Below are positions 25,942-44,852 of a stretch of DNA of 64,000 bases, in pieces. Location: IMG/VR virus record IMGVR_UViG_3300044712_002690, positions 64,001 to 128,000 of that record; one strand, written 5' to 3'. The notes beneath the pieces are model-generated. The model saw nothing but the letters and a program-made list of their open reading frames with translations, was not told the origin of the DNA and made no database searches. How positions within the stretch are numbered: the first letter of the stretch is position 1; every line of letters starts with the position of its first letter. Source of the stretch: a virus. The position numbers and the translations under genes were made by a program.

Positions 25942-27030
25942 ATGAATGACTTTTTTCATGTAGTGGGTCTTGGTCAATGTGGTATGCGTATTTCTTCTGA
26001 GTTTCAACGAGCTGGTTTTTATACAGCAGTAATGAACTCTGACGAAGTAGATGCTCGTGGTTATCAAATTGAAGAAGATAGGATTCTGGTTCTAAAGAAA
26101 ACAGGTACAGGTAAATCTCTTAAAATTGGAAGACAAATTGTAGAAGAGAATAGAGGAAAGTTTGAGTCTTTCCTTAGACGTCATGCTAACAAAAAAGGTT
26201 TGACACTTTTCATTGCTGGTGGTGGTGGAGGAACAGGTGGTTCTTTTGTTGCACCTGCTGCCGGTTATTTGAAAGAACAAGGATACAAAGTTGGTGTTAT
26301 TTATACCTTGCCACCAAAAATGCTCGGTATGGTTCCTGCAGAAAATGCTCTTCGTACTCTTAAAGAACTTACTAAAATTGAAATGGATTTGTTTATTTTG
26401 GTTGATAATGAAGTTCTACTTGAAGAAGTAGGCAAAGAAACAAGTTGGTGGGGAAAAATTAATCGACTCATCTTATCTACTTTCTATTCTTCCGTAGAAG
26501 TACTTAGATCTGATAAAACTGCTCAAACTGGTCTTGGTTCGATTGACCGTGGTGAGCTTATTCGTACTATTAGTTATGGTAAGGGTCTTACAGACATTCG
26601 TAGATGCTATTTGACCATGACAGACTGCGATCTTCCTGAACAAGATCTTAGTGAGCTTCTCTTTAAACCTCAACTGATAGAAGGATACGATTATAAAACT
26701 ACTCTTTGTTATCTTGTTTCTATTGATGTTCCTCAAAATGGTAACTTTACTGCAGTGTCTAAAAAGATATTCGATGTTGTTAAACGAAAAGTAGGTAATG
26801 GTATTTCTATTTTGGGGATGTTCCAAGATCCTCTTCTGAAAGATTCTGTAAAGGTTACTGTTGTTAATTCGGGGCTAAGACTTCCTAAAGTTCTTCAGTC
26901 CAGAATTAAAAATCTTAAGAGAGATGAGCAAGCATTTCTTGATAAGCAAGGCAAATCAGATGTCACAACTCAAATTTTTTCTGATCTTGATTTGGGGGTT
27001 AGTGTCACTGACGATGATTTTAGTATGTAG
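25942..27030 (+). CDS. Tubulin/FtsZ-superfamily GTPase (TubZ/PhuZ-like)
   Basis: VVGLGQCGMRI, MNSD, GTGKS, AGGGGGTGGS signature, LVDNE. Confidence 0.88.
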   Translation: MNDFFHVVGLGQCGMRISSEFQRAGFYTAVMNSDEVDARGYQIEEDRILVLKKTGTGKSLKIGRQIVEENRGKFESFLRRHANKKGLTLFIAGGGGGTGGSFVAPAAGYLKEQGYKVGVIYTLPPKMLGMVPAENALRTLKELTKIEMDLFILVDNEVLLEEVGKETSWWGKINRLILSTFYSSVEVLRSDKTAQTGLGSIDRGELIRTISYGKGLTDIRRCYLTMTDCDLPEQDLSELLFKPQLIEGYDYKTTLCYLVSIDVPQNGNFTAVSKKIFDVVKRKVGNGISILGMFQDPLLKDSVKVTVVNSGLRLPKVLQSRIKNLKRDEQAFLDKQGKSDVTTQIFSDLDLGVSVTDDDFSM

Positions 27031-31154: not shown

Positions 31155-33131
31155 ATGACAGATTCTTTAAGTGATAGACTTAGGGATCATAATTATGTTC
31201 CCTCACAAATACCAACCTCCCTTACTAAATCCACTACTCAGAAAAAGATTTGTCCTGTTAGATTTACAGAAGATGTTATTGAATATTGCCAAGGTGAAGA
31301 ATTTTTACAAGCAACTCTTCGTAAATTACAAAAAGACTTTTTACTTGATTTGTATGAGTTAGATGAAAAAGGATATCCAAAATATGATACAGGTGTTTTT
31401 ATAGCAGGTATGCGCGGCGGTAAGTCTATGCTTGCTGCTATTATAGCATCTTTTCAATTACATAAACTCTTAGCAATGCAAGATCCTGCTGCTCAATTAC
31501 ATCAGTTTAAAGGACAGCGACTAACTCTTCAATTTATAGCTTCTTCTGAAGCGCAAGCACAAGAAACAGCTTATGCTTCTTTTGAAGCTATTATAAATAA
31601 TGCGCCTTGGTGGGTGAAGTATATTGAATGGTTAAAAGAAAGAGAAGAAACAGAAGGCCTTGGTAAAGGATCTTTGTTTGAAATGCTTTCTAATAGAATA
31701 GAGTTCAAAGAAAAGAATATTGCTGCTTTATCTCTTCACTCTAACTCTGCTGCACTTGTAGGTAAAACATCAGCTTGTTGTATCTTTGATGAGTTATCTC
31801 GATTTGACGTAGCTGAGGGAGCTATACAGACAAAGACACAGAAACGATCTGCTCAAGCTGTTTATGATGGTGTTGCTAAAGCAGCTACATCGTTAATGCC
31901 TTTTTCAAAAGTAGTTACAATTACATCTCCTATGTACGAAGATGACTATGGTATGAGACTCCTTTATATGTCAGGTACATTTAGAGGGGGAAGTCAAAGC
32001 GGTATTATTCATACATTAAGAAAACAATATCCTATGAAGGTTGAAAGACAAGTAGGATATCATGCAACTACTTTTGAATTAAATCCAAAGGTAGATGAAA
32101 ATGGTAATGATATTCCTGGTGGTTTTTCTGAAGAAGATGCATTTTTCAAAGGAAAGAAAATTGAGAGCCCTGAAGGTTTTAGACGAGATTATTTAGCTAT
32201 ACCGCCTTCTGCTGTTAGTCCATTCTTTGAATATCCAGAACGTATAGATGCTTGTATTGTTAAAAATAGAAGCATTGTAGATTTCCATGATAGAGAATTT
32301 GATGAGTCTGTTCAAACAGTTGACGGGGATACTATTGTTAGAAAATATATTGGGAAATCTATTATTGTTAATAAGCCTAATATGCTTATGGATTATTTTA
32401 TTTCCTGCGACCAGGGTGAAAAGAAAGACGCGTTTGTTGTTGCTATGGGTCATGGAGATGAAGTATCCTATGATTCAGTTGATGGAGAAGGTAAACCAAT
32501 TACATTTACAAGATACAAAGTTATTATAGACTTTATAGAAGGATGGATTCCTGATAAAGAAAAACGTATAACAGTATCTTTCCCAAATGTAGAAGATATT
32601 ATTGTTAGACTAAGTGAAAACTTTAATATCAGAAAGGTAGTATTTGACCAGTGGAATAGCACAGAATCTTTACAAAGATTATTTAGTAAAGGTATTGTTG
32701 CTGAAAAAACAAAGCAACAAGAAAATCTTAAAAAGTATGAGATACTAAAAACACTAGTGTACAGTAATTTAATTGAATTACCCGAATCAGATATTTTAGT
32801 CAAAGAGTTAAGACAATTAAATCTTATCCGAGGTGTTAAAGTTGATCACCCCGGAGCAGGAAGTTCTGACCATTCTGATGCTATTGCACGTGTAGTTTGG
32901 GAGGTTTATACTAATGTAATTGAGAAAGCAATTCAAGGTGAAATACCTGGACCCCGTAGACATCAAATGCCTACCATTAGATCCGTTGCAAGCATGTATG
33001 AACACATGTCAGGACCAATGATATCGCCTATCTGCGACTTTGCTACCACATCTCCTGCAACTAAAAGCAGTATTTTTGGTAGAGGATTTATGGTTGAAGG
33101 TAATATCAAGCCTAACTTCCTTACTAAATGA
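31155..33131 (+). CDS. terL: Terminase large subunit
   Basis: AGMRGGKS Walker A, IFDELSRF Walker B, ITSP, nuclease SCDQG...D, VVFDQWNS, VDHP...SDHSDA. Confidence 0.88.
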   Translation: MTDSLSDRLRDHNYVPSQIPTSLTKSTTQKKICPVRFTEDVIEYCQGEEFLQATLRKLQKDFLLDLYELDEKGYPKYDTGVFIAGMRGGKSMLAAIIASFQLHKLLAMQDPAAQLHQFKGQRLTLQFIASSEAQAQETAYASFEAIINNAPWWVKYIEWLKEREETEGLGKGSLFEMLSNRIEFKEKNIAALSLHSNSAALVGKTSACCIFDELSRFDVAEGAIQTKTQKRSAQAVYDGVAKAATSLMPFSKVVTITSPMYEDDYGMRLLYMSGTFRGGSQSGIIHTLRKQYPMKVERQVGYHATTFELNPKVDENGNDIPGGFSEEDAFFKGKKIESPEGFRRDYLAIPPSAVSPFFEYPERIDACIVKNRSIVDFHDREFDESVQTVDGDTIVRKYIGKSIIVNKPNMLMDYFISCDQGEKKDAFVVAMGHGDEVSYDSVDGEGKPITFTRYKVIIDFIEGWIPDKEKRITVSFPNVEDIIVRLSENFNIRKVVFDQWNSTESLQRLFSKGIVAEKTKQQENLKKYEILKTLVYSNLIELPESDILVKELRQLNLIRGVKVDHPGAGSSDHSDAIARVVWEVYTNVIEKAIQGEIPGPRRHQMPTIRSVASMYEHMSGPMISPICDFATTSPATKSSIFGRGFMVEGNIKPNFLTK

Positions 33132-33160: not shown

Positions 33161-34417
33161 ATGAGTATGTCCAAAAAAATGTTAAAAGACTTACAGGATG
33201 TAGCTGAAAAATTTAGAAAAGACTTCCCAGGAGCAACGGCTTATGTAACACAAGCATACTTTGAAAAGCATGGTAATACTCCACGTAATCAATTCCTAGC
33301 TGAATTTGGTTCTTTTTCAAATTTTAAAGAAGAGGCAATGAAAGATGCAGGTGTAGAAACAGAGGCATTTGCATATGAAAAAAAGATATTAGGATTGCAA
33401 GAAGAAATTAAACATTTAAAAAAAGAAAAAATAGAATATATGAAAAGATCCTCAGAGTATGAGGAATTAATTGATTTATATACTTCTAATCTATCAAATC
33501 AACACATGTTTCCAATTTCAGAAGCAAAAATTAAGATAGAATCACTAACAGATAAAAAAGCAATTCTTCATTTAAGTGATCTACATTTAGGAGAAGTAGT
33601 AAAATTAGAACATGTAAATGGGGTTAATGCTTTCAATAAAGATATAGCCATTCAACGTATGGATGCAATATTAAGAAAATTTGAAAATTATTGTACAAAG
33701 AGTAAAATTGATGAATGTTTTATTTTATTGAATGGGGACCTTGTTGATGGTGGTTTAAGATTAGAGAGTATGAGGAATAGCGATTTAAATGAGTTAGAGT
33801 CTATCTTTTTTCTTCATGACTATTTAATTCAAAGACTGTGCCAATTATCTAAATCTTTTAAAAAGATTAATGTTGTTGTAATTGTAGGGAATCATTCAAG
33901 GATACTCCCTGGAAAACCTTACTATAAAGAAAAAGTTGTTATGTCATATGAATACTTGTTAGGAAGAATGCTAAAATCTTATTTTGATCATAGAAAAGAA
34001 TTAGAAACTAATAAAGTTATTGATATTATAGTTCCTGAATCTGCTTTTACAATTTTAAATGTAAATGGTAGTAAATTTTTGGTAACACATGGAGATATTT
34101 TAAGTGGTGGTGGAAGCGGAGGTTTTGCAGGTATTCCTTTTTATGCAATTGCAATGAGTTCTGCAAAACTTTATGGAATTTTACACCAAATTGGAGTTCA
34201 AGAAAACCTTCAGTTTGATAATCTTTTATTTGGACATTTGCACGTCCCTTGTAGAATACCACTTTTTAATGGTAATTTTGCATATGGAAATGGATGTATA
34301 TGTGGAGCTAATGAATATAGTATTTTTAAAATGAAAAGTGTAGCAATAAAACAACAAACACTTGTTGTTGTGTTTGGAGATGGACAAGTATCTACAAGTG
34401 ACATTTATTTTGATTAA
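33161..34417 (+). CDS. Calcineurin-like metallophosphoesterase with N-terminal helical/coiled-coil region
   Basis: SDLHLGE, NGDLVDG, GNHSR, THGD, FGHLH. Confidence 0.85.
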   Translation: MSMSKKMLKDLQDVAEKFRKDFPGATAYVTQAYFEKHGNTPRNQFLAEFGSFSNFKEEAMKDAGVETEAFAYEKKILGLQEEIKHLKKEKIEYMKRSSEYEELIDLYTSNLSNQHMFPISEAKIKIESLTDKKAILHLSDLHLGEVVKLEHVNGVNAFNKDIAIQRMDAILRKFENYCTKSKIDECFILLNGDLVDGGLRLESMRNSDLNELESIFFLHDYLIQRLCQLSKSFKKINVVVIVGNHSRILPGKPYYKEKVVMSYEYLLGRMLKSYFDHRKELETNKVIDIIVPESAFTILNVNGSKFLVTHGDILSGGGSGGFAGIPFYAIAMSSAKLYGILHQIGVQENLQFDNLLFGHLHVPCRIPLFNGNFAYGNGCICGANEYSIFKMKSVAIKQQTLVVVFGDGQVSTSDIYFD

Positions 34418-35690: not shown

Positions 35691-36122
35691 TTAATGTAAT
35701 AAATGATCAGCGCAGTAACTAGCTGCAAATGCACCAGGTTTTATCTTGTAATCAAATCCCATAGCAGACACATATCCACTAGCAGCAGCTACATAAGAAT
35801 GTGATTTGTATTTACTGTCTGGGTTAAAGTCTAAGTGAACTTCAAATTTTCTATTTCCAACATATGGATGTATCTCCATAGCACATTTAACAGCCATATC
35901 TACTTCTTTCATTAGTCTTTCTGAGATAGCCATGTATTTAGGATCTTTGCTTTTTTCAGCAAAAACCATACTACCTTTAGATGAAGCTATATGGATAACT
36001 ACAACTAAAGCAAAGTGGGTGTGCCCATCGATAACTTGTGAATCTACACCTACATAAACAGAGCTTGATTCTGGGCTCTCCTCAATGTGTTTTTTAACCT
36101 CTTCATACACTAGCTTTCTCAT
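35691..36122 (-). CDS. RNase H-like protein (YkuK/DUF458 family)
   Basis: VYVGVDSQ, ERLMKEV, EVHLDFN, GAFAASYCADH; start at MRKLV because the upstream in-frame part lies in tRNA-His. Confidence 0.8.
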   Translation of the reverse strand: MRKLVYEEVKKHIEESPESSSVYVGVDSQVIDGHTHFALVVVIHIASSKGSMVFAEKSKDPKYMAISERLMKEVDMAVKCAMEIHPYVGNRKFEVHLDFNPDSKYKSHSYVAAASGYVSAMGFDYKIKPGAFAASYCADHLLH

Positions 36123-36135
36123 AACAAATAACCTC

Positions 36136-36210
36136 TGGGAGAAGTACGAGAATCGAACTCGTATCTTTGGAACCACAATCCAAGGTAATAGCCGTTATAC
36201 GAACTTCTCC
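36136..36210 (-). tRNA. trnH: tRNA-His(GUG) with encoded G-1
   Basis: Cloverleaf; loop UUGUGGU; G-1:C73. Confidence 0.9.
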
Positions 36211-36221
36211 ATAAAAATAAA

Positions 36222-36287
36222 TTTGAGATTGAGAGACTCGAACTCTCGGAAAAGGGTTATGAGCCCTAATCCCCACCTGGATCTCAA
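36222..36287 (-). ncRNA. D-arm-deficient tRNA-like element with CAU anticodon
   Basis: Acceptor UUGAGAU/AUCUCAA, AGGG-CUCAUAA-CCCU, T arm GAGAG-UUCGAGU-CUCUC, only about 12 nt in the D region. Confidence 0.65.
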
Positions 36288-36351
36288 CAGGATACTAGCT
36301 ATCACTAGTAACCTTTTTTGTTCATCGACCGGAGAGAATATGATGTTTATG

Positions 36352-36423
36352 TCGGGGTGGTCGGGATCGAACCGACGACTTTCTGCTCCCAAAGCAGACA
36401 CGCTACCGCTGCGCCACACCCCG
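36352..36423 (-). tRNA. trnP: tRNA-Pro(UGG)
   Basis: UCUGC-UUUGGGA-GCAGA; C1:G72; A73. Confidence 0.93.
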
Positions 36424-36427
36424 TATT

Positions 36428-36676
36428 TTACTTTAAACAATTCTTGCAGGAGTAAGTACCCTTAGCAACCCATTTCAAGTCTTTAAAAAAGACATTAGCA
36501 CCACATCTATAACAAATTCCTTTTCCTTCTTCAATTAAAACTCGTATTGAATCCCCTTGTTTCCAGAATTTACAATTTTGTATTGCTTCTTCAGTCATTG
36601 GGATCGGTTTTGCATAATTTTGTGGATGACCACAAACAAACATTGCATGAAACCAACAATTATTACAATTATCCAC
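36428..36676 (-). CDS. Cys-rich hypothetical protein
   Basis: Several CxxC motifs. Confidence 0.55.
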   Translation of the reverse strand: MDNCNNCWFHAMFVCGHPQNYAKPIPMTEEAIQNCKFWKQGDSIRVLIEEGKGICYRCGANVFFKDLKWVAKGTYSCKNCLK

Positions 36677-36957
36677 TAGCTTGCTCTTTTAACTCTATAT
36701 TGAATAGCGTCAGAAATATCTCTTAGTTTAGCTGGTTTAGAAACCTTACAATCATCATACTCGCAATTGAAACAATCATCCTCACATACACCTAAATGTA
36801 TTCTAATACAACTATTACACACAGTAAAACTATATTTATTCTCTTGTGTGATAGGAGTGTTACAATATTTACACACATTCCTTTTATTTTTAATTTTATG
36901 AATAGAATTATACTTCCTTTGATATTCTCTTTTTTGCTCAATATCCTTAAAGGGCAT
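36676..36957 (-). CDS. Cys-rich hypothetical protein
   Basis: AAGGA RBS; CxxC motifs. Confidence 0.6.
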   Translation of the reverse strand: MPFKDIEQKREYQRKYNSIHKIKNKRNVCKYCNTPITQENKYSFTVCNSCIRIHLGVCEDDCFNCEYDDCKVSKPAKLRDISDAIQYRVKRAS

Positions 36958-36990
36958 ATTTTATATCCTTATTGATATTAAAATAAAATG

Positions 36991-37063
36991 AGCTCCCGAG
37001 AGGAATTGAACCCCCAACCTACTGATTACAAATCAGTTGCTCTACCGATTGAGCTACAGGAGC
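36991..37063 (-). tRNA. trnT: tRNA-Thr(UGU)
   Basis: ACUGA-UUUGUAA-UCAGU; full cloverleaf. Confidence 0.93.
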
Positions 37064-37231
37064 AAGTAAGTTATGTAGTTGGTTTAAGAGCCAACTTCAT
37101 TTCTTTCATTTTCTTAGTCTTTTCTTTCCAGCTTAGTGATTTCCAAATCTTTTTAAAAATCCTGTAGTTAATATCTTGTGAGGAAGATATTTTCCTACTA
37201 TACTTCTTAAGTACTTTAGCTGTTTTAGTAT

Positions 37232-37432
37232 TCATTTCATCTCCTTTTTCTTAATGTCTTTATATAAATATCTTTTTTTCATTAAACTTTTTATAATTTT
37301 GTCTGTTTCTTCTATTGTTAAATTAGCTAGTTTAGCAATATTATCGATATAACAAGGTTCACTGTTTTTCCATTTATTTACAATGTTATAAACATCTTGT
37401 TCTATTTTAGAAGAGAACTTTTTATAGCTCAC
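37232..37432 (-). CDS. Small winged-HTH-like protein
   Basis: IDNIAKLANLTIEETDKIIKSLMKKRYL. Confidence 0.5.
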   Translation of the reverse strand: MSYKKFSSKIEQDVYNIVNKWKNSEPCYIDNIAKLANLTIEETDKIIKSLMKKRYLYKDIKKKEMK

Positions 37433-37450
37433 AGCATTCCTTTTATAAGA

Positions 37451-37526
37451 TAGTATACAGGCGGCTTATATTTACAACCTTTGCTCTTACCTTCCGGAAC
37501 GGTTACGCGGACGGCCTGTATACTAA
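37451..37526 (-). ncRNA. Unidentified structured RNA closed by a 12-bp stem
   Basis: UAGUAUACAGGC/GCCUGUAUACUA enclosing a GC-rich interior with small hairpins. Confidence 0.5.
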
Positions 37527-37527
37527 T

Positions 37528-37615
37528 TGGCGGAGGCCGGATTCGAACCGGCGTTACAAGTCTTTCGACGCCGAGGGTTATGAGCCCTCCGAGAAGCCAA
37601 CTCCTCTACTCCGCT
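37528..37615 (-). tRNA. trnfM: Initiator-type tRNA-Met(CAU) with 20-nt variable arm
   Basis: A1xC72 mismatch, A11:U24, GAGGG-CUCAUAA-CCCUC (three G:C pairs), variable GGCGUCGAAAGACUUGUAAC. Confidence 0.85.
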
Positions 37616-37653
37616 CTATATTATAAAATATACCAATTGGTTATATTTTTCTT

Positions 37654-37839
37654 CTAAAACTTTTTAATAATAGCAATAGTACTATCTGAAATCTCTTTCT
37701 TATCTAAATCAATTGAAAGATTAGCTTCAATTGAAATATCATTACTTATATTTACCAATCCATCTTTAGGCTGATTACTTTGCAGAGATGGATCCTTTCT
37801 TAGATTTTTACCGTTTACTGTTTTAAGCCACTCGAACAT
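37654..37839 (-). CDS. Hypothetical protein
   Basis: AAGG RBS; ORF between tRNAs. Confidence 0.5.
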   Translation of the reverse strand: MFEWLKTVNGKNLRKDPSLQSNQPKDGLVNISNDISIEANLSIDLDKKEISDSTIAIIKKF

Positions 37840-37853
37840 ATACCTTACCTATG

Positions 37854-37932
37854 CAGGGGTGACACGAGTCGAACGTGCATTGCCGAAGCACGGTTTTGGA
37901 GACCGCTGGGTTAGCCATTACCCTACACCCCT
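37854..37932 (-). tRNA. trnW: tRNA-Trp(CCA) with 11-nt variable arm
   Basis: GCGGU-CUCCAAA-ACCGU; G73; variable GCUUCGGCAAU. Confidence 0.9.
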
Positions 37933-37942
37933 AAATATTCTG

Positions 37943-38021
37943 AGCAAGTGATGGGACTCGAACCCACAATGCTTTCGCATCAGTTTGGAAGACTGACAGC
38001 TTACCTTTAGCTTACACTTGC
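37943..38021 (-). tRNA. trnG: tRNA-Gly(UCC) with 12-nt variable arm
   Basis: UCAGU-CUUCCAA-ACUGA; U73; variable UGCGAAAGCAUU. Confidence 0.9.
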
Positions 38022-38546
38022 TTATTGAATCATTCTTACTTGAGTATAGTCACTAAGTAAGAATCTTCTCTGCTTATTTACTTCTTGAATTGCCTCACAA
38101 ATATTATCATACGATTCAGTTACTAACGTATTAAATTCTTCTTCATTAAATTCTACAATAGTGCGATCTCTTTCAAGACACTCGTATAAGTCTTCTACAT
38201 TTTTATAAAATTTTCTATAAAGAAGAGTATATACTTTTTTTATATCCTTAACATAAAATCTAATAAATGAATCTTGTGTAATGAATCCAATATAAACAGA
38301 GTTATTATCTATTCTTTCCCAAGTACGAAATTTTGTTTGATCTGACCTAACACTAAGTTCTTCAATAAGATCATCTATATTAGCTTTTATATAGCCAGTA
38401 CCATAATGAAAGTTATTTAAATCATATGTACTAGCAGTATCATTACCAATAATAGGATTGTAACCTTCAGGTGCATTTAACCAAATACCATCATGAAGAA
38501 ATAAGTGAAATGAACGTAACATCCATTTGTATAATTCTTCTTTCAT
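38022..38546 (-). CDS. Hypothetical protein
   Basis: AAGGAG RBS; 174 aa. Confidence 0.7.
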   Translation of the reverse strand: MKEELYKWMLRSFHLFLHDGIWLNAPEGYNPIIGNDTASTYDLNNFHYGTGYIKANIDDLIEELSVRSDQTKFRTWERIDNNSVYIGFITQDSFIRFYVKDIKKVYTLLYRKFYKNVEDLYECLERDRTIVEFNEEEFNTLVTESYDNICEAIQEVNKQRRFLLSDYTQVRMIQ

Positions 38547-38604
38547 ATAATTTCTCCTTTCTAATTTATACTTGTAATATATAAAGAAAAGAGAATAAAA
38601 CTAA

Positions 38605-39120
38605 CTAAAGCATTGCTCCAACTTGTGGACTTGTTGTTACTCCTTGTTGTAAGAACGTTGCTGATGCCTGTTGTACAGCTTGTAACCAAGCTTCTTTAGT
38701 AATTAATGAACGAAGTATAGGAACTATATTCACTAAATTTGGATCTTGACTTCCTTGATTATATATTTCAATTCCTATCCAATCCATTGCTGGAATCGAA
38801 TCTGTTTGTGTTTTAGCTTCCTGAGGAACCATACCTTTTTGAGATATAAAATCGTCAATAGTTAATTTTGCTATATTAAGAAGCGTAGAATTAACTAATG
38901 TATTAAGATCTTGCTCAGGATTCTGTTGTATAGATGCAATTAACTTACTAATTTCACTATCAAGAATCTCTTGAGTTAAATCAGCATATTTAACTACTAT
39001 ATGAGCAAAAACAGTTTTATAAAATCTTTCAAGACAATCAGCTCTTCTTGTATCCATATATACTTCTCCTAGATAGATAATATATAAAGATAACATGAAG
39101 AGTGATTTTTTAAGTTTCAC
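38605..39120 (-). CDS. Hypothetical protein (likely start MDTRR at 39057)
   Basis: AGGAG RBS before the internal ATG. Confidence 0.65.
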   Translation of the reverse strand: MKLKKSLFMLSLYIIYLGEVYMDTRRADCLERFYKTVFAHIVVKYADLTQEILDSEISKLIASIQQNPEQDLNTLVNSTLLNIAKLTIDDFISQKGMVPQEAKTQTDSIPAMDWIGIEIYNQGSQDPNLVNIVPILRSLITKEAWLQAVQQASATFLQQGVTTSPQVGAML

Positions 39121-39133
39121 TGCTTCAAATAAA

Positions 39134-39361
39134 TTAAGCAGCTACTACTACATCTTTCTCCATACGATTAACACCAATAACTTCAAACTTCTCATCTTCA
39201 TTCCACTTAGCTTTAACAGCAGAAGCAGCAGCACCTACATCAGTAGCAACAGCTAGTTCACAGCGGTTGATAACTTTTCCTGTAGTGCGCGAGGTACGTT
39301 TAATGTCTACATGGTACAGGTTCATTATAAAGCTCCTTTCATTTAATTTATTTTGATACAT
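39134..39361 (-). CDS. Hypothetical protein
   Basis: AAGGAG RBS before MNLYHV. Confidence 0.6.
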   Translation of the reverse strand: MYQNKLNERSFIMNLYHVDIKRTSRTTGKVINRCELAVATDVGAAASAVKAKWNEDEKFEVIGVNRMEKDVVVAA

Positions 39362-39400
39362 TTAATATAAGAAACCTTTACTAATAAAGTAACTAGTATG

Positions 39401-39480
39401 TACCACGAGAGGGACTCGAACCCTCACCAATTAAGACTAGTTCCTAAGACTAGCGCGTCTACCAGTTCCGCCATCGTGGC
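39401..39480 (-). tRNA. trnL: tRNA-Leu(UAG)
   Basis: CUAGU-CUUAGGA-ACUAG; class II; A73. Confidence 0.92.
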
Positions 39481-39483
39481 ATG

Positions 39484-39556
39484 TGCTCAAGGTCGGGATC
39501 GAACCGACTACACACGGATTTTCAGTCCGTTGCTCTACCTTCTGAGCTACCTGAGC
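39484..39556 (-). tRNA. trnF: tRNA-Phe(GAA)
   Basis: ACGGA-CUGAAAA-UCCGU. Confidence 0.94.
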
Positions 39557-39561
39557 TCATG

Positions 39562-39635
39562 TGGATCGTCCCTGACTCGAACAGGGGGCCTAATGATTAT
39601 GAGTCATTTGCTCTAACCAACTGAGCTAACGATCC
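39562..39635 (-). tRNA. tRNA with CAU anticodon (elongator Met or Ile2)
   Basis: AAUGA-CUCAUAA-UCAUU; paired G1:C72; Met versus lysidine-Ile cannot be resolved by eye. Confidence 0.88.
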
Positions 39636-39641
39636 AAGAAT

Positions 39642-39716
39642 TGGGACTTCTCCGACTTGAACGGAGGACCTATTGCCTATCAAGCAATTGCTCTAACCAA
39701 ACTGAGCTAAAGTCCC
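39642..39716 (-). tRNA. trnI: tRNA-Ile(GAU)
   Basis: AUUGC-UUGAUAG-GCAAU. Confidence 0.92.
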
Positions 39717-39734
39717 TGTTTTGAAAGAAAAATA

Positions 39735-39908
39735 AACTAAAGGTGTGTTGCTACACCAAAGGAGACACATTGTTTATCCTAGCCAACACTTCCTGCGGGT
39801 CTCACAGGTCTTAGTTTTTACACTTGGTCAGTTTCGGAATGATCTCCACTCATTAAAGTATACAGTTTCCCAAGCTGCTGGCTACCTCTAAGCCCACTGC
39901 CTTTAGTT
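39735..39908 (-). ncRNA. Unidentified ~175-nt multi-stem RNA with two potential pseudoknots
   Basis: Closing stem AACUAAAGG/CCUUUAGUU and four internal stems whose G:U pairs favour the - strand. Confidence 0.6.
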
Positions 39909-39914
39909 ATTCTG

Positions 39915-39987
39915 TGGACCTGATCGGTTACGATCCGACTACCTCCTGCTTGCAGGGCAGGCGCTCTCCCAATTGAGCTACAGGCCC
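39915..39987 (-). tRNA. trnA: tRNA-Ala(UGC), atypical C33 and T loop
   Basis: G3:U70; CCUGC-CCUGCAA-GCAGG; T loop AUCGUAA. Confidence 0.88.
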
Positions 39988-39994
39988 TAATTAG

Positions 39995-40231
39995 TTAATG
40001 TTTTAGCTTTTCACCTTCTTTAATCATTTCTTCTATAACATTGTCAATTAAAGTAAAAAGTTCGTCACTATTTCTATCTAGTAAAGCAGCTACACCACTA
40101 ATTATTTTTATTTGAGTACTTATTTCTTCATCTTCGTCTTCACTTACAGGAAGATACATTGAAATTGTATTATCAGTACGAAGAACAAGTGCTGCATCAC
40201 CATCTTTTAATGTAATTTTTGTTTTACCCAT
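39995..40231 (-). CDS. Hypothetical protein
   Basis: AAGGAAG RBS; ORF between tRNAs. Confidence 0.6.
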   Translation of the reverse strand: MGKTKITLKDGDAALVLRTDNTISMYLPVSEDEDEEISTQIKIISGVAALLDRNSDELFTLIDNVIEEMIKEGEKLKH

Positions 40232-40256
40232 AAATGTCTTCCTTATGTTTGGTATT

Positions 40257-40330
40257 TGGATCGGGTGAGGGTCGAACTCACGACTCCTGCATTAAAAGTG
40301 CAGTGCTACTACCAACTGAGCTACCGATCC
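40257..40330 (-). tRNA. trnK: tRNA-Lys(UUU)
   Basis: CUGCA-CUUUUAA-UGCAG. Confidence 0.93.
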
Positions 40331-40391
40331 TTTCGTTTATTACTTTCCTTATCACTTTCCTTCATAAGGAAACCTCCTTTAAATTAAAATG

Positions 40392-40467
40392 TGTTCCTGA
40401 AGGGACTCGAACCCCTAACCTTCTGATCCGTAATCAGAAACTCTAAATCCAATTGAGCTACAGGAAC
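40392..40467 (-). tRNA. trnR: tRNA-Arg(ACG)
   Basis: UCUGA-UUACGGA-UCAGA. Confidence 0.92.
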
Positions 40468-40475
40468 TTAAAATG

Positions 40476-40548
40476 CGTCCCAGGAGAGGATCGAACTCCC
40501 GACAAACGGATTAGAAATCCGTTGCTCTTCCACCTGAGCTACTGGGAC
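40476..40548 (-). tRNA. trnR: tRNA-Arg(UCU)
   Basis: ACGGA-UUUCUAA-UCCGU. Confidence 0.93.
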
Positions 40549-40605
40549 AAAAAGCGTGTTGATATACTCAACACTAAAACCAACGATTTCCATCCAAATC
40601 GCTTG

Positions 40606-40677
40606 CTCTGGAGGCAAGGATCGAACTTGCGACCAATCGGTTAACAGCCGATGGCTCTACCGCTGAGCTACTCCAGA
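40606..40677 (-). tRNA. trnN: tRNA-Asn(GUU)
   Basis: AUCGG-CUGUUAA-CCGAU; G73. Confidence 0.94.
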
Positions 40678-40682
40678 ATATA

Positions 40683-41177
40683 TTAGATAAAAGGAGTTAA
40701 ATGCAATAACCTTTTAATTTTCCATTTGATATTTTTTATTAAGTAAATACTATATCTTACTATTCTTTTAACAGTCCATTTGTTTTTTATTTCAATTTCA
40801 TATTGACCATATTTAGTTTTAGATACTATTTGAAATGCATTGAAAAATTGATCGTTTGATCCCCATGGTACACCACAGTCATATTCTGTTCCATCTTTAT
40901 ATTCAATTGAAATACCTGTTATGTCTGAATGGTTAGTAACTCTTTTATATAAAGATACATATTCATCATTCCAATTTTTATATTGTAATGGTTTAAGGTC
41001 TTTAAATATGACATAAATCCACTCTGCACCATCACGTTCATCACCTTGTGTTACATTACAACACGAATAGTGTTTGTGAACTTTTCCAATATACCAATTT
41101 GAAATATGTTTAATATCTATTTTAGCAGTATCACAATTTTCAAAGATTAATACTACATTTTTCACTTCTTTAAACAT
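40683..41177 (-). CDS. Conserved phage hypothetical protein
   Basis: 164 aa ORF with AAGGA RBS. Confidence 0.7.
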   Translation of the reverse strand: MFKEVKNVVLIFENCDTAKIDIKHISNWYIGKVHKHYSCCNVTQGDERDGAEWIYVIFKDLKPLQYKNWNDEYVSLYKRVTNHSDITGISIEYKDGTEYDCGVPWGSNDQFFNAFQIVSKTKYGQYEIEIKNKWTVKRIVRYSIYLIKNIKWKIKRLLHLTPFI

Positions 41178-41198
41178 GTTCTATTATATCCTTGTATG

Positions 41199-41273
41199 CG
41201 AGGCTGAAGGGACTCGAACCCTCGACCTTCTGCGTGACAGGCAGACGCTCTAACCAAACTGAGCTACAACCCC
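41199..41273 (-). tRNA. trnD: tRNA-Asp(GUC)
   Basis: UCUGC-CUGUCAC-GCAGA; G73. Confidence 0.94.
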
Positions 41274-41279
41274 GTTTAT

Positions 41280-41552
41280 TTAAGAATCAGCAATCTCACT
41301 AGTAAAATAACGATTTTGTGAAACTGTAAGTGCTGTACAAAGACTACATTGCCAACATTTATGTTCCACCATCCATTTAGCATACTCTTTTAATTCTACA
41401 CCTTCAATTACTATCGAAACAAGAAGTTCTCCATTATCTTTTATTTCAATAGTAGGAAAATCTTCTTTCAAGTCAGCTAATACTTTAGCTTTAAGAGCAG
41501 TAGCACTATCCTTATCAGCACAAACTTTATCAAAAGCAAGAAGATCTTTCAT
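41280..41552 (-). CDS. Hypothetical protein
   Basis: AAGGAG RBS. Confidence 0.65.
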   Translation of the reverse strand: MKDLLAFDKVCADKDSATALKAKVLADLKEDFPTIEIKDNGELLVSIVIEGVELKEYAKWMVEHKCWQCSLCTALTVSQNRYFTSEIADS

Positions 41553-41573
41553 ACATTACTCCTTTAAAAATTG

Positions 41574-42058
41574 TGCCCAAGGCCGGAGTCGAACCGGCAC
41601 GGAGAAATCTCCATGGGATTTTACTTACCACTATAGCTTTCGCTACCAGTATTGCGCGTCTATTAAACTTTTTACTACTTATTTATTTAATGTGGTTCGT
41701 AGCCCCCACTCTTAATAGAATACTGTTTGTAGTCTGGACTTTGTCTTCACCATATTAAAGTACCACGACTGCCATATCACTGACCTCTATGTAGGCCACA
41801 GTCCTTATGACTTTAATTTAGGTGGTGCCCGTCAAGTCTCTACACGTTCCAAGCAGGTGAGGTATCAGATTATTTCTAATCTTCTCATTCTCCTTTTGCT
41901 TTCCTTACTTGGTTTCGCTCGGCGTTGGGTCATATAGATTCTAATTAAGATCTCTCCATATAGGCCGTTCACCGAATTTGAGCACTTACTACTAAAAAGT
42001 TTCCTTTTTAGCGACCCTTTAATGAGTCCCAGGTGTCTACCAATTCCACCACTTGGGC
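41574..42058 (-). tRNA. trnL: tRNA-Leu(UAA), split by a group I intron (exons 42025-42058 and 41574-41623)
   Basis: Joined exons give UGGGA-CU^UAAAA-UCCCA, class II variable arm, A73. Confidence 0.9.
41624..42024 (-). mobile_element. ORF-less group I intron, 401 nt
   Basis: P1 GACU/GGUC with U:G splice site; P2 CUAAAAAG-GAAA-CUUUUUAG; CUCAAAUUCGGUGAA, GUAGAGACUUGACGGG and AAGACAAAGUCC core motifs; terminal G. Confidence 0.9.
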
Positions 42059-42060
42059 AA

Positions 42061-42141
42061 AATAAAGTAAGGTCTAGCAAGTAGAAGTAGGGAGGTAACA
42101 TTTCAAGCGTTAACCTACTCCTATCCGTACCTTACTTTATT
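42061..42141 (-). ncRNA. Y-RNA-like element Y1 (downstream of Ro60)
   Basis: 13-bp terminal stem AAUAAAGUAAGGU/ACCUUACUUUAUU, GGUACGGA motif, 10-bp stem UAGGAGUAGG/CCUACUUCUA. Confidence 0.75.
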
Positions 42142-42153
42142 AGAATTCAGAAA

Positions 42154-43767
42154 TTAAATGCCCCCTTTAGCAAATTCAGAAATGATTGATGGTGCCGCTG
42201 AATCGAAGCCGCAAACATCAAGCATTCCAGGGTCTTTAGGATCTGCAATTGTAAATTGAGTTCCTACCATACCTACAACAGCTAATTTAGCATCTTTCAC
42301 ATGAGCGTTTCTATACTTTTTGAGTGCTTGGCTTGGTGCAATTCTTCCGGCCCAAGTCTCATTATCAGTATAGATTGTAAAAATATCAAAGTCTAATTTT
42401 TCTCTAAGAGCCCATTCCATCGGCAATGCACAATCTGTTCCTTCGAATGGAAGACCTGAAATTTTTCTAATAGTTTCATTCAATGACATTCTAGGAGTAA
42501 TGTCAAGGTGCATGAATCTACTAGAGAATCCCATAATCTCATAGTTCTTTTCTGTACGAGCAGTTACCATTGCCATACAAGCAGATGCTTCACGGCAAGT
42601 AACAATACCATACGCTCCAGAAATATAAGCTCCTCCCATTGAACCAGATACGTCAAGTGCAAGTAAGAATCTTTTATCTGTTGGTTCAATATTCTTGAAA
42701 CTAAGATAAAAAGCTTCTTCAAGTGCATCACGTACTTTACCAACAGGCTTCCAAGTAAGACTACCTTTGATTCCATGACCCATTGAATATGTTTTTAATG
42801 CAATGAGAATATTCAATGGATGCAGTCTACTTTTAGAAATATAATCCTGATTAGTTAATTTTCCAACCACACGTTCAATTTCATTAAACTTACCAGGACC
42901 AATTACTCCGATTGCAGTAAGTCTGTTAAGACTTCTCATTAATGCTGTAAGTGGAATATCATCAAGAGCTTCTGTCCAAATACTAACATTATTCTTCAGT
43001 TCAGTAGGCCAAGCATCTTGAGGAATTTTGTATTCCTTAATAAGCTTTTTAGCTTTTGCTACATCAGCTGTTTTAAGTTCATCGAAAGCATTAATAAGTT
43101 TCAATGCTTCTGATTTTTCTCCTTTAACAGCATACTTAAAAAGCTCATTATGAGCATCGGACACTGGTTTTACGTGTGCAGAACGAAGAACATCTCGATG
43201 TGTCCACTGATTTCCTGTTCCTTCAACAGTACGTCCTTGATATTTAACTAGTTGATATTCAAGTTTAGAAGGTTCCATTGCATACCAATTAGAAATAGCT
43301 TTACGTACTGACCTTCCCCAACTTCTCATTGTATCTACATAGTGAGTAAACATGAAAAGATGAGTACCTGTACGACAAATCTTAGGCATAGCCTTTGAGA
43401 TTTCAGTTTTGAAAGAACTATCTTTACAATTAGTAATAAGAGCTGCTAAAAGGAAAATAGCTTGATCATTTTTAGCTGCTCTACCTGAATCAGAAATTTC
43501 TACAATAGTTTCAAGTACACGTTTAGGGTCTTCATCTATACAAGCTAAGCAATTTGAGATGTTTAGCTTAGTAAGATCATTTTGAGTGACATAGTATGTT
43601 CCGCCTTCAGACCCAAGCACAAGGAAGCGTTGGAGCATCTTCCACTTATCTAGTACGAATGTGTACCCACCTGCATTATTCTTTGCCATTTCCTTTTCAC
43701 GACCAGGAATAGGCTGAGATTGAGGTGTTTGTTTAGAATCTTGAAAAGAACTGTAATTGACAGCCAT
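42154..43767 (-). CDS. rsr: Ro60 / TROVE-domain RNA-binding protein (Rsr-like)
   Basis: NNAGGY...LQRFLVLGSEGGTYY, YQGR...WTHRDVLR, HPL..L.AL..Y..G, vWA MIDAS LALDVSGSM, GTDC, YTDNETW; start MAVNYS after GAAGGAGG. Confidence 0.95.
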   Translation of the reverse strand: MAVNYSSFQDSKQTPQSQPIPGREKEMAKNNAGGYTFVLDKWKMLQRFLVLGSEGGTYYVTQNDLTKLNISNCLACIDEDPKRVLETIVEISDSGRAAKNDQAIFLLAALITNCKDSSFKTEISKAMPKICRTGTHLFMFTHYVDTMRSWGRSVRKAISNWYAMEPSKLEYQLVKYQGRTVEGTGNQWTHRDVLRSAHVKPVSDAHNELFKYAVKGEKSEALKLINAFDELKTADVAKAKKLIKEYKIPQDAWPTELKNNVSIWTEALDDIPLTALMRSLNRLTAIGVIGPGKFNEIERVVGKLTNQDYISKSRLHPLNILIALKTYSMGHGIKGSLTWKPVGKVRDALEEAFYLSFKNIEPTDKRFLLALDVSGSMGGAYISGAYGIVTCREASACMAMVTARTEKNYEIMGFSSRFMHLDITPRMSLNETIRKISGLPFEGTDCALPMEWALREKLDFDIFTIYTDNETWAGRIAPSQALKKYRNAHVKDAKLAVVGMVGTQFTIADPKDPGMLDVCGFDSAAPSIISEFAKGGI

Positions 43768-43785
43768 TTTGCTGCCTCCTTCATA

Positions 43786-43858
43786 TAAGATTAGGTCAAG
43801 TAGTTGGAATAGGGGAAACATTCTGAAGTTAACCTACCCCATCCGTACCTAAAACCTT
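43786..43858 (-). ncRNA. Y-RNA-like element Y2 (upstream of the Ro60 RBS)
   Basis: UUAGGUACGG...UUGACCUAA terminal helix with bulged A; UGGGGUAGG/CCUAUUCCA stem. Confidence 0.8.
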
Positions 43859-43860
43859 TA

Positions 43861-43985
43861 GGAACAAGGCAGGATTTGAACCTGCGACCAGCCCATTATA
43901 AGTGGTAACCTTTTCTCTTCCGTACCTTTCAGTCAATAGTTTGAAAAAAGGGTTTTAGCTGCTCTACCGCTGAGCTACTTGTTCC
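43861..43985 (-). ncRNA. tRNA-Y chimera Y3: tRNA-Ile(UAU)-like body with a 52-nt Y module inserted at 28/29
   Basis: Acceptor, D and T arms intact; insert 43906-43957 holds UUGACU-GAAA-GGUACGG; removing it gives GCCCA-CUUAUAA-UGGGC. Confidence 0.8.
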
Positions 43986-43988
43986 TTG

Positions 43989-44114
43989 TCCTAAGGGGAG
44001 GACTTGAACCTCCGACCCGTAGTGTGACCTGTTAACCTTAACCTGCCGTACCTTTCGGTCAAATAATCGGAAAAGGTATTTTAACTACTGCTCTACCAAC
44101 TGAGCTACCTTAGG
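43989..44114 (-). ncRNA. tRNA-Y chimera Y4: tRNA scaffold with a 60-nt Y-containing insert in place of the anticodon loop
   Basis: CCUAAGG/CCUUAGG acceptor, canonical D and T arms, GUAGU/ACUAC stem enclosing UUGACC-GAAA-GGUACGG. Confidence 0.8.
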
Positions 44115-44123
44115 ATATAAATA

Positions 44124-44191
44124 TAATTGGTCAAATGAGTTGCGATAGGATGCTAACACCATAAGTTAACCTATCACATCCGTACCAATTA
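44124..44191 (-). ncRNA. Y-RNA-like element Y5
   Basis: UAAUUGGUACGG...UUGACCAAUUA; UGUGAUAGG/CCUAUCGCA stem; UUAAC/GUUAG apical helix. Confidence 0.8.
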
Positions 44192-44194
44192 ATT

Positions 44195-44266
44195 CTGCGG
44201 GACTAGGACTCGAACCTAGACAACAGATTCCAAGGACCTGTGTCCTACCAATTAGACCATCCCGCA
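44195..44266 (-). tRNA. trnQ: tRNA-Gln(UUG), atypical C33
   Basis: U1:A72, G73; CAGGU-CCUUGGA-AUCUG. Confidence 0.88.
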
Positions 44267-44345
44267 ATAAGAAATACAATTATATCAGGTACTTTTTGAC
44301 TTCTACTTATAATATAAGATAAGTAAAAGAAGAAAGTAACTAATG

Positions 44346-44432
44346 CGGGCAGAGTAGGATTTGAACCCACGGAACCTTTAGATCCTCTAGTTTTCAAGAC
44401 TAGCGCCATAAACCAGACTCGGCCATCTGCCC
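44346..44432 (-). tRNA. trnS: tRNA-Ser(UGA)
   Basis: CUAGU-CUUGAAA-ACUAG; long variable arm; G73. Confidence 0.93.
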
Positions 44433-44436
44433 GATG

Positions 44437-44523
44437 CGGAGAGGAAGAGATTTGAACTCTTATCGGCCTGCCGGCCTACGCAGGTTTAGCAAACCTGTCA
44501 CTTACCAGTTAGTGTACCTCTCC
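44437..44523 (-). tRNA. trnS: tRNA-Ser(GCU)
   Basis: CAGGU-UUGCUAA-ACCUG; long variable arm; G73. Confidence 0.92.
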
Positions 44524-44528
44524 TAATG

Positions 44529-44602
44529 CATCGGGGACGGGACTTGAACCCGCAAATACCAACGTGAAAGGCTGGTGACTTTACCAATTTGTCTACCCCG
44601 AC
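44529..44602 (-). tRNA. trnE: tRNA-Glu(UUC)
   Basis: CCAGC-CUUUCAC-GUUGG. Confidence 0.92.
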
Positions 44603-44604
44603 AT

Positions 44605-44679
44605 TGGACCGTCAAGGAATTGAACCTTGCTGAAAAACTATCCTGTAAAAATAGCGCCTACCCAGCCGGCCCACGGTCC
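44605..44679 (-). tRNA. trnV: tRNA-Val(UAC), 8-nt variable region
   Basis: CUAUU-UUUACAG-GAUAG; GGACCGU/ACGGUCC. Confidence 0.82.
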
Positions 44680-44757
44680 ATAAAGCCTACTCTTTGTTTA
44701 TAGTGGCTGTTGGCAGCGTAATTCCACTACACGATTTAAAGCTAGTGCGTACTCATT

Positions 44758-44843
44758 TGGATGGGGAGGGATTCGAACCCCCAACGCTCAATCGAGTCCA
44801 GATTTACAGTCTGGTAGTGTCCACCAGTCTCACAAGCCCATCC
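44758..44843 (-). tRNA. trnY: tRNA-Tyr(GUA)
   Basis: CCAGA-CUGUAAA-UCUGG; class II; A73. Confidence 0.93.
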
Positions 44844-44852
44844 ATTTTCGTT

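Follow-up and report, generated by a model that had tools for sequence, protein, structure and literature searches.

An initiator-type tRNA gene with a hairpin in its variable region in a jumbo-type phage

Introduction

Textbooks divide transfer RNAs into class I, with a short variable loop, and class II, which in bacteria comprises the tRNAs for Leu, Ser, Tyr and Sec. Of the known class I tRNAs, the initiator is the most highly conserved. Several described groups of tRNA combine a long variable arm with an unusual setting. The allo-tRNAs and (8/4) tRNA-Ser/His of bacteria and phages have a long arm and an anticodon other than those for Leu, Ser or Tyr, and some of them are phage-encoded (PMC5389517). 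They are built on 8/4 or 9/3 geometry or on Ser- or Leu-type bodies, and are thought to be charged, or mischarged, by class II synthetases (PMC5389517). V-arm tRNAs of nematodes and other eukaryotes are also on record (Hamashima et al., 2016, as cited in PMC5389517). Engineered aptamer-tagged tRNAs have hairpins grafted onto the variable arm of suppressor tRNAs that use an allo-tRNA chassis (PMC7590224); unlike the tRNA reported here, they are artificial and non-initiator. A phage tRNA-Tyr is apparently overexpressed from a strong promoter to overcome the retron-Eco7 defence (PMC11555353). That case shares the frame that we propose below, phage tRNA copies set against tRNA-directed immunity, and no added arm is described for it. 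Neither an initiator that has a variable arm nor a class I phage tRNA that bears one came up in our full-text literature search.

The gene described here lies in a window of 64,000 nucleotides (the whole stretch of DNA that was analysed), which corresponds to bases 64001–128000 of a 178,984-base IMG/VR virus record (IMGVR_UViG_3300044712_002690); the record is 76% complete. The 88-nt tRNA resembles bacterial tRNA-fMet (E. coli metZWV/metY) in its CAU anticodon, the stem-loop core GGGCUCAUAACCC, the three G:C pairs, A11:U24 and the 7/5 geometry, as well as in the unpaired 1×72 position, G2:C71, C3:G70, G4:C69 and A73. It differs from bacterial tRNA-fMet in being phage-encoded and in having a 20-nt variable region with a hairpin where the bacterial tRNA has a 5-nt loop, and from the E. 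coli molecule in its A1×C72 mismatch (C1×A72 in E. coli) and in the lack of an encoded CCA. With the class II tRNAs of bacteria (Leu, Ser, Tyr and Sec) it shares a base-paired arm between the anticodon and T arms and a variable region of more than 10 nt, whereas its Met anticodon, initiator body, A73, shorter stem (of 3 bp or, if bulged, perhaps 5) and long 3' tail set it apart, as does the absence of G73 (Ser) and of G34 and U35 (Tyr). Unlike the allo-tRNAs and (8/4) tRNAs, it keeps the 7/5 geometry together with a full initiator body, and initiators are not mentioned in PMC5389517. Unlike the intron-bearing archaeal initiators, it shows no bulge-helix-bulge motif by inspection and comes from a phage that looks bacterial.

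Structure of the tRNA gene

ARAGORN and Rfam both place the gene at 37528–37615 of the window, so that the coordinates given in the initial annotation, which was made from the letters alone, are correct. The full Rfam model RF00005 (positions 1–71), whose gathering score is 29, is matched with a score of 46.8 bits; over the whole window the E value is 7.7e-7. The gene and its elements are as follows.

37528–37615, minus strand: initiator-type tRNA(CAU) gene, 88 nt, no encoded CCA (ARAGORN, Rfam RF00005, ARAGORN cloverleaf)
37609–37615, minus strand: 5' strand of the acceptor stem, AGCGGAG; A1 (37615) lies opposite C72 (37529), a mismatch (sequence)
37591–37606, minus strand: D arm, GAGG-AGUUGGCU-UCUC; A11 (37605) is paired with U24 (37592), and G18 and G19 are present
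37573–37589, minus strand: anticodon arm, GAGGG-CUCAUAA-CCCUC; anticodon CAU at 37580–37582
37553–37572, minus strand: variable region, 20 nt, GGCGUCGAAAGACUUGUAAC, made up of a 5-nt loop GG/AAC and a 15-nt insertion
37560–37569, minus strand: variable-arm hairpin GUC-GAAA-GAC, 3 bp with a GNRA tetraloop (ViennaRNA minimum-free-energy fold, ARAGORN)
37536–37552, minus strand: T arm, GCCGG-UUCGAAU-CCGGC, intact (sequence, ViennaRNA, cmscan, ARAGORN)
37528–37535, minus strand: 3' strand of the acceptor stem, CUCCGCC (37529–37535), with discriminator A73 at 37528 (sequence, ARAGORN)

The A1×C72 opposition is flagged as non-standard by cmscan and is left unpaired in both the ViennaRNA and the ARAGORN folds; below it are six Watson–Crick pairs, among them G2:C71, C3:G70 and G4:C69. 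The three G:C pairs beside the anticodon loop are formed by G29–31 (37585–37587) with C39–41 (37575–37577). All three of the initiator hallmarks that had been read from the sequence (A1×C72, A11:U24 and G29–31:C39–41) are borne out by cmscan, ViennaRNA and ARAGORN, and the 20-nt variable region with its GUC-GAAA-GAC hairpin, also noted at the outset, is found by ViennaRNA and ARAGORN. G15 and the final C of the variable region are able to make the usual 15:48 pair, and the acceptor stem of seven positions with a T stem of 5 bp gives the 7/5 geometry. The gene is very probably a real initiator-type tRNA gene.

The determinants of formylation are reportedly (Lee 1991, Guillon 1992) G2:C71, C3:G70, (G4:C69) and A73. 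Those determinants are all present in the 88-nt tRNA (AGCGGAG ... CUCCGCC-A, with A11:U24). Since class II tRNAs traverse all of the ribosomal sites, the P site is compatible with an arm placed here. The CAU anticodon suffices for recognition by MetRS, and the formylase requires the 1-72 mismatch and R11:Y24 (PMC9976931).

An alternative arm of 5 bp, which has an additional G·U and C-G pair beneath a UU bulge, lies only 1.1 kcal/mol above the 3-bp hairpin. This bulged arm would leave a 1-nt 5' spacer and an AAC tail, as in many of the other arm-bearing initiators described below. Without the 15 nt, the gene is a canonical 73-nt class I initiator with the variable loop GGAAC. The arm is probably kept in the mature tRNA, to judge from the sequence of the gene. 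Both the hairpin and the entire variable region occur once in the 179-kb record, and an origin of the hairpin from a mobile repeat was rejected on this ground.

The phage and its tRNA island

The window has a G+C content of 32.7%. Genes of the record include those for a family-A-type DNA polymerase, a UvsX-like recombinase, DnaB, DnaG, a tubulin homologue, a sigma-70-like protein and a large terminase. Because a 239-kb contig bears an identical terminase and related phages span 217–253 kb, we regard the source as a jumbo-type phage of ∼240 kb. According to ARAGORN, positions 36137–44844 hold a tRNA island of 22 tRNA genes, all on the minus strand and together covering 19 amino acids; the 88-nt tRNA(CAU) gene is the fourth of the 22. 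A second CAU tRNA lies in the same window.

39561–39635, minus strand: second CAU tRNA, 75 nt, elongator-like, with G1:C72, an AU-rich anticodon stem and a 5-nt variable loop

As this other CAU tRNA is elongator-like, the 88-nt gene is the only initiator-type tRNA of the record. The tRNA-Tyr of the phage is called by ARAGORN as class II, of the 88-nt type, and this tRNA, the sigma-70-like protein, DnaB and DnaG make the host look bacterial. The phage also has several RNA-related genes, namely those for an RtcB ligase, for Ro60, which is encoded within the island, and for two tRNA-like Y RNAs. The 179-kb record (76% complete) was searched for a deformylase, a formyltransferase and a CCA-adding enzyme, with negative results. 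The ORFs adjoining the tRNA belong to no Pfam family, and a neighbouring ORF of 174 aa has no homologue among 5.8 billion proteins.

Related phages in IMG/VR were located by alignment of terminase homologues. A fragment with 46% terminase identity (G004) has the same local order, Pro-Thr-Met-Trp-Gly-Leu, and its Met gene is an initiator-like tRNA of 74 nt with U1:A72, G2-C3-G4, A11:U24, A73 and the 5-nt loop AGGUC. On this comparison the arm of the 88-nt gene is an insertion in this phage lineage, because its syntenic counterpart has 74 nt and a 5-nt loop; the presence of a syntenic ortholog with no arm likewise suggests an independent gain. Two further relatives (G002 and G003) have initiator-like tRNAs of normal length. 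The closest phage by terminase (G001; 67% identity, a complete genome of 236 kb) has four tRNAs only, none of the initiator type. Among cultured phages (50,697 records), megablast with the 9-kb island and blastn with the tRNA gave only short matches to unrelated tRNAs. A search for relatives through Ro60 in IMG/VR found none, and a lineage-specific pattern had 0 matches in JGI metagenomes.

Arm-bearing initiators in phages and in cells

Other arm-bearing CAU tRNAs do exist. A search pattern consisting of the initiator anticodon arm, 18–40 free bases and a T loop identified 58 IMG/VR contigs with initiator-type tRNAs that have long variable regions, and initiator-type tRNAs with a normal loop were counted at more than 114 IMG/VR loci. 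The 88-nt gene fits the pattern of this class in having an initiator anticodon arm, a variable region of at least 11 nt and a canonical T arm, and in being phage-encoded. The variable regions of the 48 unique genes of the class are 11–22 nt long and very heterogeneous in both sequence and length. Position 1:72 is mostly a mismatch (U·U, C·A or C·U) or a weak U:A or A:U pair; A73 is present in 36/46 and G2-C3-G4 in 35/48. Variable-region hairpins of −2 kcal/mol or lower are predicted for 62.5% of the class genes, compared with 14.5% of shuffled sequences, and GNRA loops cap 20 of 38 class hairpins. The hairpin is frequently followed by a tail of 3–4 nt, for example AAC, and a mini-module GC-GNRA-GC plus three bases is also found on initiators of other phages. 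Some phages (L037 and L059) have two arm-bearing initiators. The nearest class member to the 88-nt gene has 77% identity, mainly in universally conserved positions; with no class member closer than this, the 88-nt gene is apparently a separate lineage or an independent gain relative to the others.

In one subfamily of five sequences the arm helix is paired throughout (100%) and three of its five pairs have changed on both sides, a pattern of compensatory change that resembles that of the acceptor, anticodon and T helices. Position 1:72 is never paired in this subfamily (four sequences; there is a gap in the fifth), and G2:C71, C3:G70, A11:U24 and the three G:C pairs are invariant. The alignment indicates that selection is acting on the pairing of the arm within this subfamily of five. 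The compensatory changes mean that the arm must fold once it is present; it does not follow that it has a positive function.

Cellular genomes were scanned with the same pattern, at one genome per species (185,579 species), giving 112 matches of which 80 were listed. Among these 80 of the 112 matches, only L082 and L117 are plausible cellular cases; they lie on short MAG contigs (8.3 and 4.3 kb), the former within a phage-like tRNA array. Nearly all of the listed matches are either archaeal initiators whose insertions of 20–40 nt we read as introns, or artefacts in bacteria, namely N masks, internal duplications and chance T-loop-like words that follow a normal gene. Among the 80 of 112 cellular matches listed, the arm-bearing initiator design thus appears to be essentially confined to phages. 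The initial annotation had taken long arms in bacteria to be normally limited to Leu, Ser, Tyr and Sec. This holds for the cellular initiators scanned, but it often fails in phages, where the initiators of 58 IMG/VR contigs and many elongator isotypes carry long variable regions.

Variable-region arms on other phage tRNAs

Two genes near the 88-nt gene have extended variable regions as well.

37853–37932, minus strand: tRNA-Trp(CCA), 80 nt, with an 11-nt variable region GC-UUCG-GC-AAU
37942–38021, minus strand: tRNA-Gly(UCC), 80 nt, with an 11-nt variable region GC-GAAA-GC-AUU

By the ARAGORN calls, 3/18 class-I-isotype tRNAs of this phage have a long variable region, and these three carry variable-region hairpins. 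The Trp module reads GC-UUUU-GC-AUU in the syntenic fragment, with the GC/GC clamp retained. The Gly variable region is identical there in 11/11 positions, while elsewhere in the gene the alignment differs in 19 of its 80 columns, through 18 substitutions and a single end gap. In unrelated GC-rich phages the GCGAAAGC module is also found in tRNA-Gly(UCC), on four other IMG/VR contigs that have clearly different sequences and all encode CCA (two of the four share one sequence).

In the sampled phage loci, arm-bearing elongators include Thr, Asn, Ile, Lys, Cys, Pro, Glu, Val, His, Trp and Gly isotypes. A variable region of at least 11 nt is present in 31/362 class I elongators beside arm-bearing initiators and in 13/268 beside normal initiators. 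The co-occurrence of arm-bearing initiators and elongators is a weak trend (8.6% versus 4.9% of tRNAs; 19/42 versus 7/32 loci), to which we attach no weight. Variable-region arms are, on these gene calls, not specific to initiators; a role tied to IF2 or to the formylase is therefore unlikely, and a property that would serve tRNAs of any kind is the likelier alternative. The early suggestion that the arm alters recognition by a synthetase or by IF2 becomes less likely for the same reason. In the 88-nt tRNA both the CAU anticodon and the determinants of formylation are intact, and the Ser and Tyr identity elements are absent.

Proposed function of the arm

The explanation that we prefer overall, and put forward only tentatively, is that the gene encodes a working phage initiator tRNA which retains its arm and is thereby less open to attack by tRNA-disabling enzymes of the host. 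Going by the identity rules, the host CCA-adding enzyme would complete the 3' end, the host MetRS would charge the tRNA through its CAU anticodon and A73, and the host formyltransferase would accept it through the 1×72 mismatch, G2:C71, C3:G70, G4:C69 and A11:U24; its placement in the P site of the 30S subunit would be due to the three G:C pairs. In the mature tRNA the inserted 15 nt would most likely persist as a small arm capped by a GNRA loop, projecting from the outer side of the L-shaped molecule, where class II arms sit, and the surfaces for MetRS, formylase, IF2 and the ribosome would be left undisturbed. The 88-nt tRNA may in this way be one case of a phage-wide habit of placing compact hairpins in class I variable regions. 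Our best guess is that VapC-type nucleases and AtaT-type acetyltransferases, which act on tRNA-fMet, could attack the phage copy less readily because of its arm. Arms on the Trp and Gly tRNAs might similarly hinder toxins aimed at those tRNAs, and phage initiation could continue while the host initiator is under attack.

Evasion of tRNA-directed host toxins by the arm is plausible, and so is the other early suggestion, that the arm shields the tRNA from tRNA-targeting defence. Among such toxins VapC is a nuclease that cuts tRNA-fMet, AtaT is an acetyltransferase acting on Met-tRNA-fMet and TacT is directed at Gly-tRNA-Gly; the cut of VapC-type toxins falls within the anticodon stem-loop (PMC7180214). 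The stem-loop core GGGCUCAUAACCC of the 88-nt tRNA is the same as that of the cellular initiators in our scan, which counts against protection from VapC. We know of no toxin or defence system that is blocked by a variable arm. The RtcB ligase, Ro60 and Y-like RNAs of the phage do point to pressure on phage RNAs, and an anti-toxin or defence role for the arm is possible, if on balance doubtful. A more general reading is that variable-region hairpins are a phage-specific armour or identity tag for tRNAs, by which all of the translation contacts would be kept while host toxins and nucleases are evaded or the phage's own tRNAs are marked as self; in this generality we consider it rather unlikely. 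If it were true, it would add a new structural layer to the conflict between phages and hosts over tRNAs.

The recurrence of arm-bearing initiators in phages suggests that the initiation machinery tolerates the arm and that phages gain something from it. Were the arm to protect against toxins directed at the initiator (VapC and AtaT) or against other tRNA-targeting immunity, this would be a new principle of counter-defence. The design, if it works as proposed, would also be a natural precedent for orthogonal, arm-tagged initiator tRNAs in synthetic biology.

Alternative explanations

The arm may have no function at all and may be an expansion tolerated under relaxed constraint, the phage tRNAs being auxiliary copies in which small insertions keep arising and only those that fold compactly survive. 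Within a tRNA, the variable loop is the one site that takes insertions. Long variable regions on many isotypes (31/362 and 13/268 class I elongators in the two sets of loci) fit such an account, as do the syntenic ortholog that has no arm, the absence of conserved relatives of the 88-nt gene and the heterogeneity of arm sequences and lengths (11 to 22 nt); the preference for GNRA loops and GC clamps is what selection for harmless compact folding would be expected to give. However, the Gly module is identical despite diverged stems and recurs in unrelated GC-rich phages, the arm helix undergoes compensatory change like a functional helix, and some phages (L037 and L059) have two arm-bearing initiators. 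Under mere tolerance, cellular initiators present in multiple copies should show insertions too, and practically none do among the 80 of 112 matches listed. Tolerated expansion is a serious possibility, though we consider it less likely than not. Three observations modestly favour a positive function of the arm: the Gly module is identical in phages that have diverged, the arm helix undergoes compensatory change, and arms are nearly absent from cellular initiators among the matches listed.

The arm could instead be a handle or self-mark that is read by a phage or host protein, so that phage tRNAs are spared when the phage turns on host tRNAs, or are channelled to phage translation. A short module, GC-GNRA-GC with a 3-nt tail, is indeed found on different isotypes in unrelated phages, and the phage has three adjacent tRNAs with variable-region hairpins as well as the RNA-binding Ro60 in its island. 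The neighbouring ORFs, however, offer no candidate partner (they are without a Pfam family, and one is without homologues), the arm sequences of the class are too diverse for a single sequence-specific reader, and only 3/18 class-I-isotype tRNAs of this phage would carry the mark. We regard this explanation as improbable.

It is very improbable that the extra segment is an intervening sequence which is removed to leave an ordinary 73-nt initiator plus CCA. Excision of the 15 nt would restore a perfect class I initiator, and archaeal initiators carry insertions of 20–40 nt at about this place, which we read as introns. The segment, on the other hand, is far below the size of a self-splicing group I intron and is not flanked by a bulge-helix-bulge motif (by inspection), and the phage looks bacterial from its class II tRNA-Tyr, sigma-70-like protein, DnaB and DnaG; bacteria, to our knowledge, have no splicing endonuclease. 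Moreover, the insertion is exactly at the site of the class II arm, and its helix is conserved within the class.

A switch of identity, with the arm recruiting SerRS, LeuRS or TyrRS and phage proteins starting with a residue other than Met, deserves hardly any weight. A long arm is a main determinant for SerRS and A73 is common to tRNA-Leu, and the 88-nt tRNA has both. SerRS uses the long arm together with G73 or U73 (PMC5389517). Against such a switch, CAU alone gives full recognition by MetRS (PMC9976931), and neither G73 (Ser) nor the GUA anticodon (Tyr) is present; the arm, at 3–5 bp, is shorter than the 4–5 bp arms of the phage's own Ser and Tyr tRNAs and has different spacers, and the same arms are found on Gly, Trp, Thr, Asn and other tRNAs that have no identity logic in common.

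A decaying or non-functional gene with a random insertion in its variable loop is scarcely credible: the gene is a singleton for which no close relatives were found and has the lowest Rfam score of the island tRNAs listed, but all of its stems are paired, the conserved tertiary positions and initiator determinants are intact, it is the sole initiator-type tRNA in an otherwise complete set (22 tRNAs for 19 amino acids), and the lower score is due to the insertion and the 1×72 mismatch, both of which are features of the class. In phage annotation, arm-bearing tRNA genes are readily mis-scored or masked by spurious ORFs.

Ro60 and its candidate RNA partners

Among the 22 tRNA genes of the phage's tRNA island lies a gene for a Ro60/Rsr homologue, and immediately upstream of it are two tRNA-like RNAs in tandem. 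An RtcB ligase is encoded beyond the window, elsewhere in the phage's own record (G000).

Window 42154-43821, minus strand: Ro60/Rsr homologue (TROVE and vWA domains, E = 1e-65)
Window 43861-43984, minus strand: tRNA-like RNA 1 (~125 nt)
Window 43989-44114, minus strand: tRNA-like RNA 2 (~125 nt)
G000:C1:173356-174375, minus strand: RtcB ligase

Both RNAs match the tRNA model, at 46-52 bits each, with 59-65 nt in place of the anticodon loop; YrlA gave a weak match of 23 bits, which is below the gathering score. The two probably serve Ro60 as Y-RNA-like partners, and together with Ro60 and RtcB they resemble the bacterial rsr-yrlA-rtcB RNA repair set.

Unusual variable regions in other phage tRNAs

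Two further tRNAs in the island have variable regions of 11 nt that form a mini-hairpin of two pairs capped by a tetraloop, and counterparts with the mini-hairpin occur at locus L322.

Window 37853-37932: tRNA-Trp
Window 37942-38021: tRNA-Gly
L322:3992-4072 and 4169-4247: tRNA-Trp/tRNA-Gly counterparts

The Gly module, GCGAAAGCAU, was found again in the tRNA-Gly(UCC) of otherwise unrelated, CCA-encoding phages (L329, L331, L332 and L333); this looks like a phage tRNA-Gly family with a constant variable-region module.

The tRNA arrays at L329 and L331 also hold a 92-nt tRNA with a long variable arm, an encoded CCA and the anticodon UUA, which would decode the UAA stop codon; this could be a class II-shaped suppressor tRNA. 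The tRNA-Tyr(GUA) of the related phage G004 is only 75 nt long, a class-I size like that of archaeal and eukaryotic tRNA-Tyr, whereas its counterpart in the window has 88 nt and a long arm.

L329:5664-5755, minus strand: tRNA(UUA)
L331:2746-2837, minus strand: tRNA(UUA)
L323:6650-6724, minus strand: tRNA-Tyr(GUA) of G004

Other initiator-type tRNAs

At three phage loci the initiator-type tRNA, besides having a long variable region, appears to contain a second hairpin insert (GGC-GUAA-GCC or similar) in the D loop. Two adjacent, differing arm-bearing initiator-type tRNA genes were seen in one phage (L037), and likewise at L059.

L019:~5700-5800: initiator-type tRNA with apparent D-loop hairpin
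L032:~11120-11220: the same
L050:~3430-3540 on the reverse complement (minus strand): the same
L037:2403-2597, minus strand: adjacent gene pair
L059:1994-2237, minus strand: adjacent gene pair

Archaeal initiator tRNA genes carry insertions of 20-40 nt between the anticodon arm and the T loop (L064, L066, L067, L073 and many more Nitrososphaeraceae and Thermoproteota loci among the matches listed, where they are very frequent in Nitrososphaeraceae MAGs); these are presumably non-canonical introns. Short tandem duplications inside the gene, involving the anticodon-stem/variable-loop segment, were seen in bacterial initiator tRNAs (L125:3061-3447 in Pseudomonas brassicacearum; L065, L085, L091 and L093); assembly errors or damage to the gene copy could account for them.

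Other protein genes of the window

The PF04308 protein gene, adjoining tRNA-His, and the phosphoesterase gene, adjoining that of the terminase, border the tRNA island. In other phages, this terminase has many homologues with Pfam intein, Hint and LAGLIDADG domains.

Window 17315-18463, plus strand: QueF-like nitrile reductase (7-deazaguanine pathway)
Window 25942-27030, plus strand: tubulin/FtsZ-family protein, PhuZ/TubZ-like
Window 31155-33131, plus strand: terminase (Pfam family PF27249)
Window 33161-34417, plus strand: calcineurin-like phosphoesterase
Window 35691-36176, minus strand: RNaseH-like PF04308 protein
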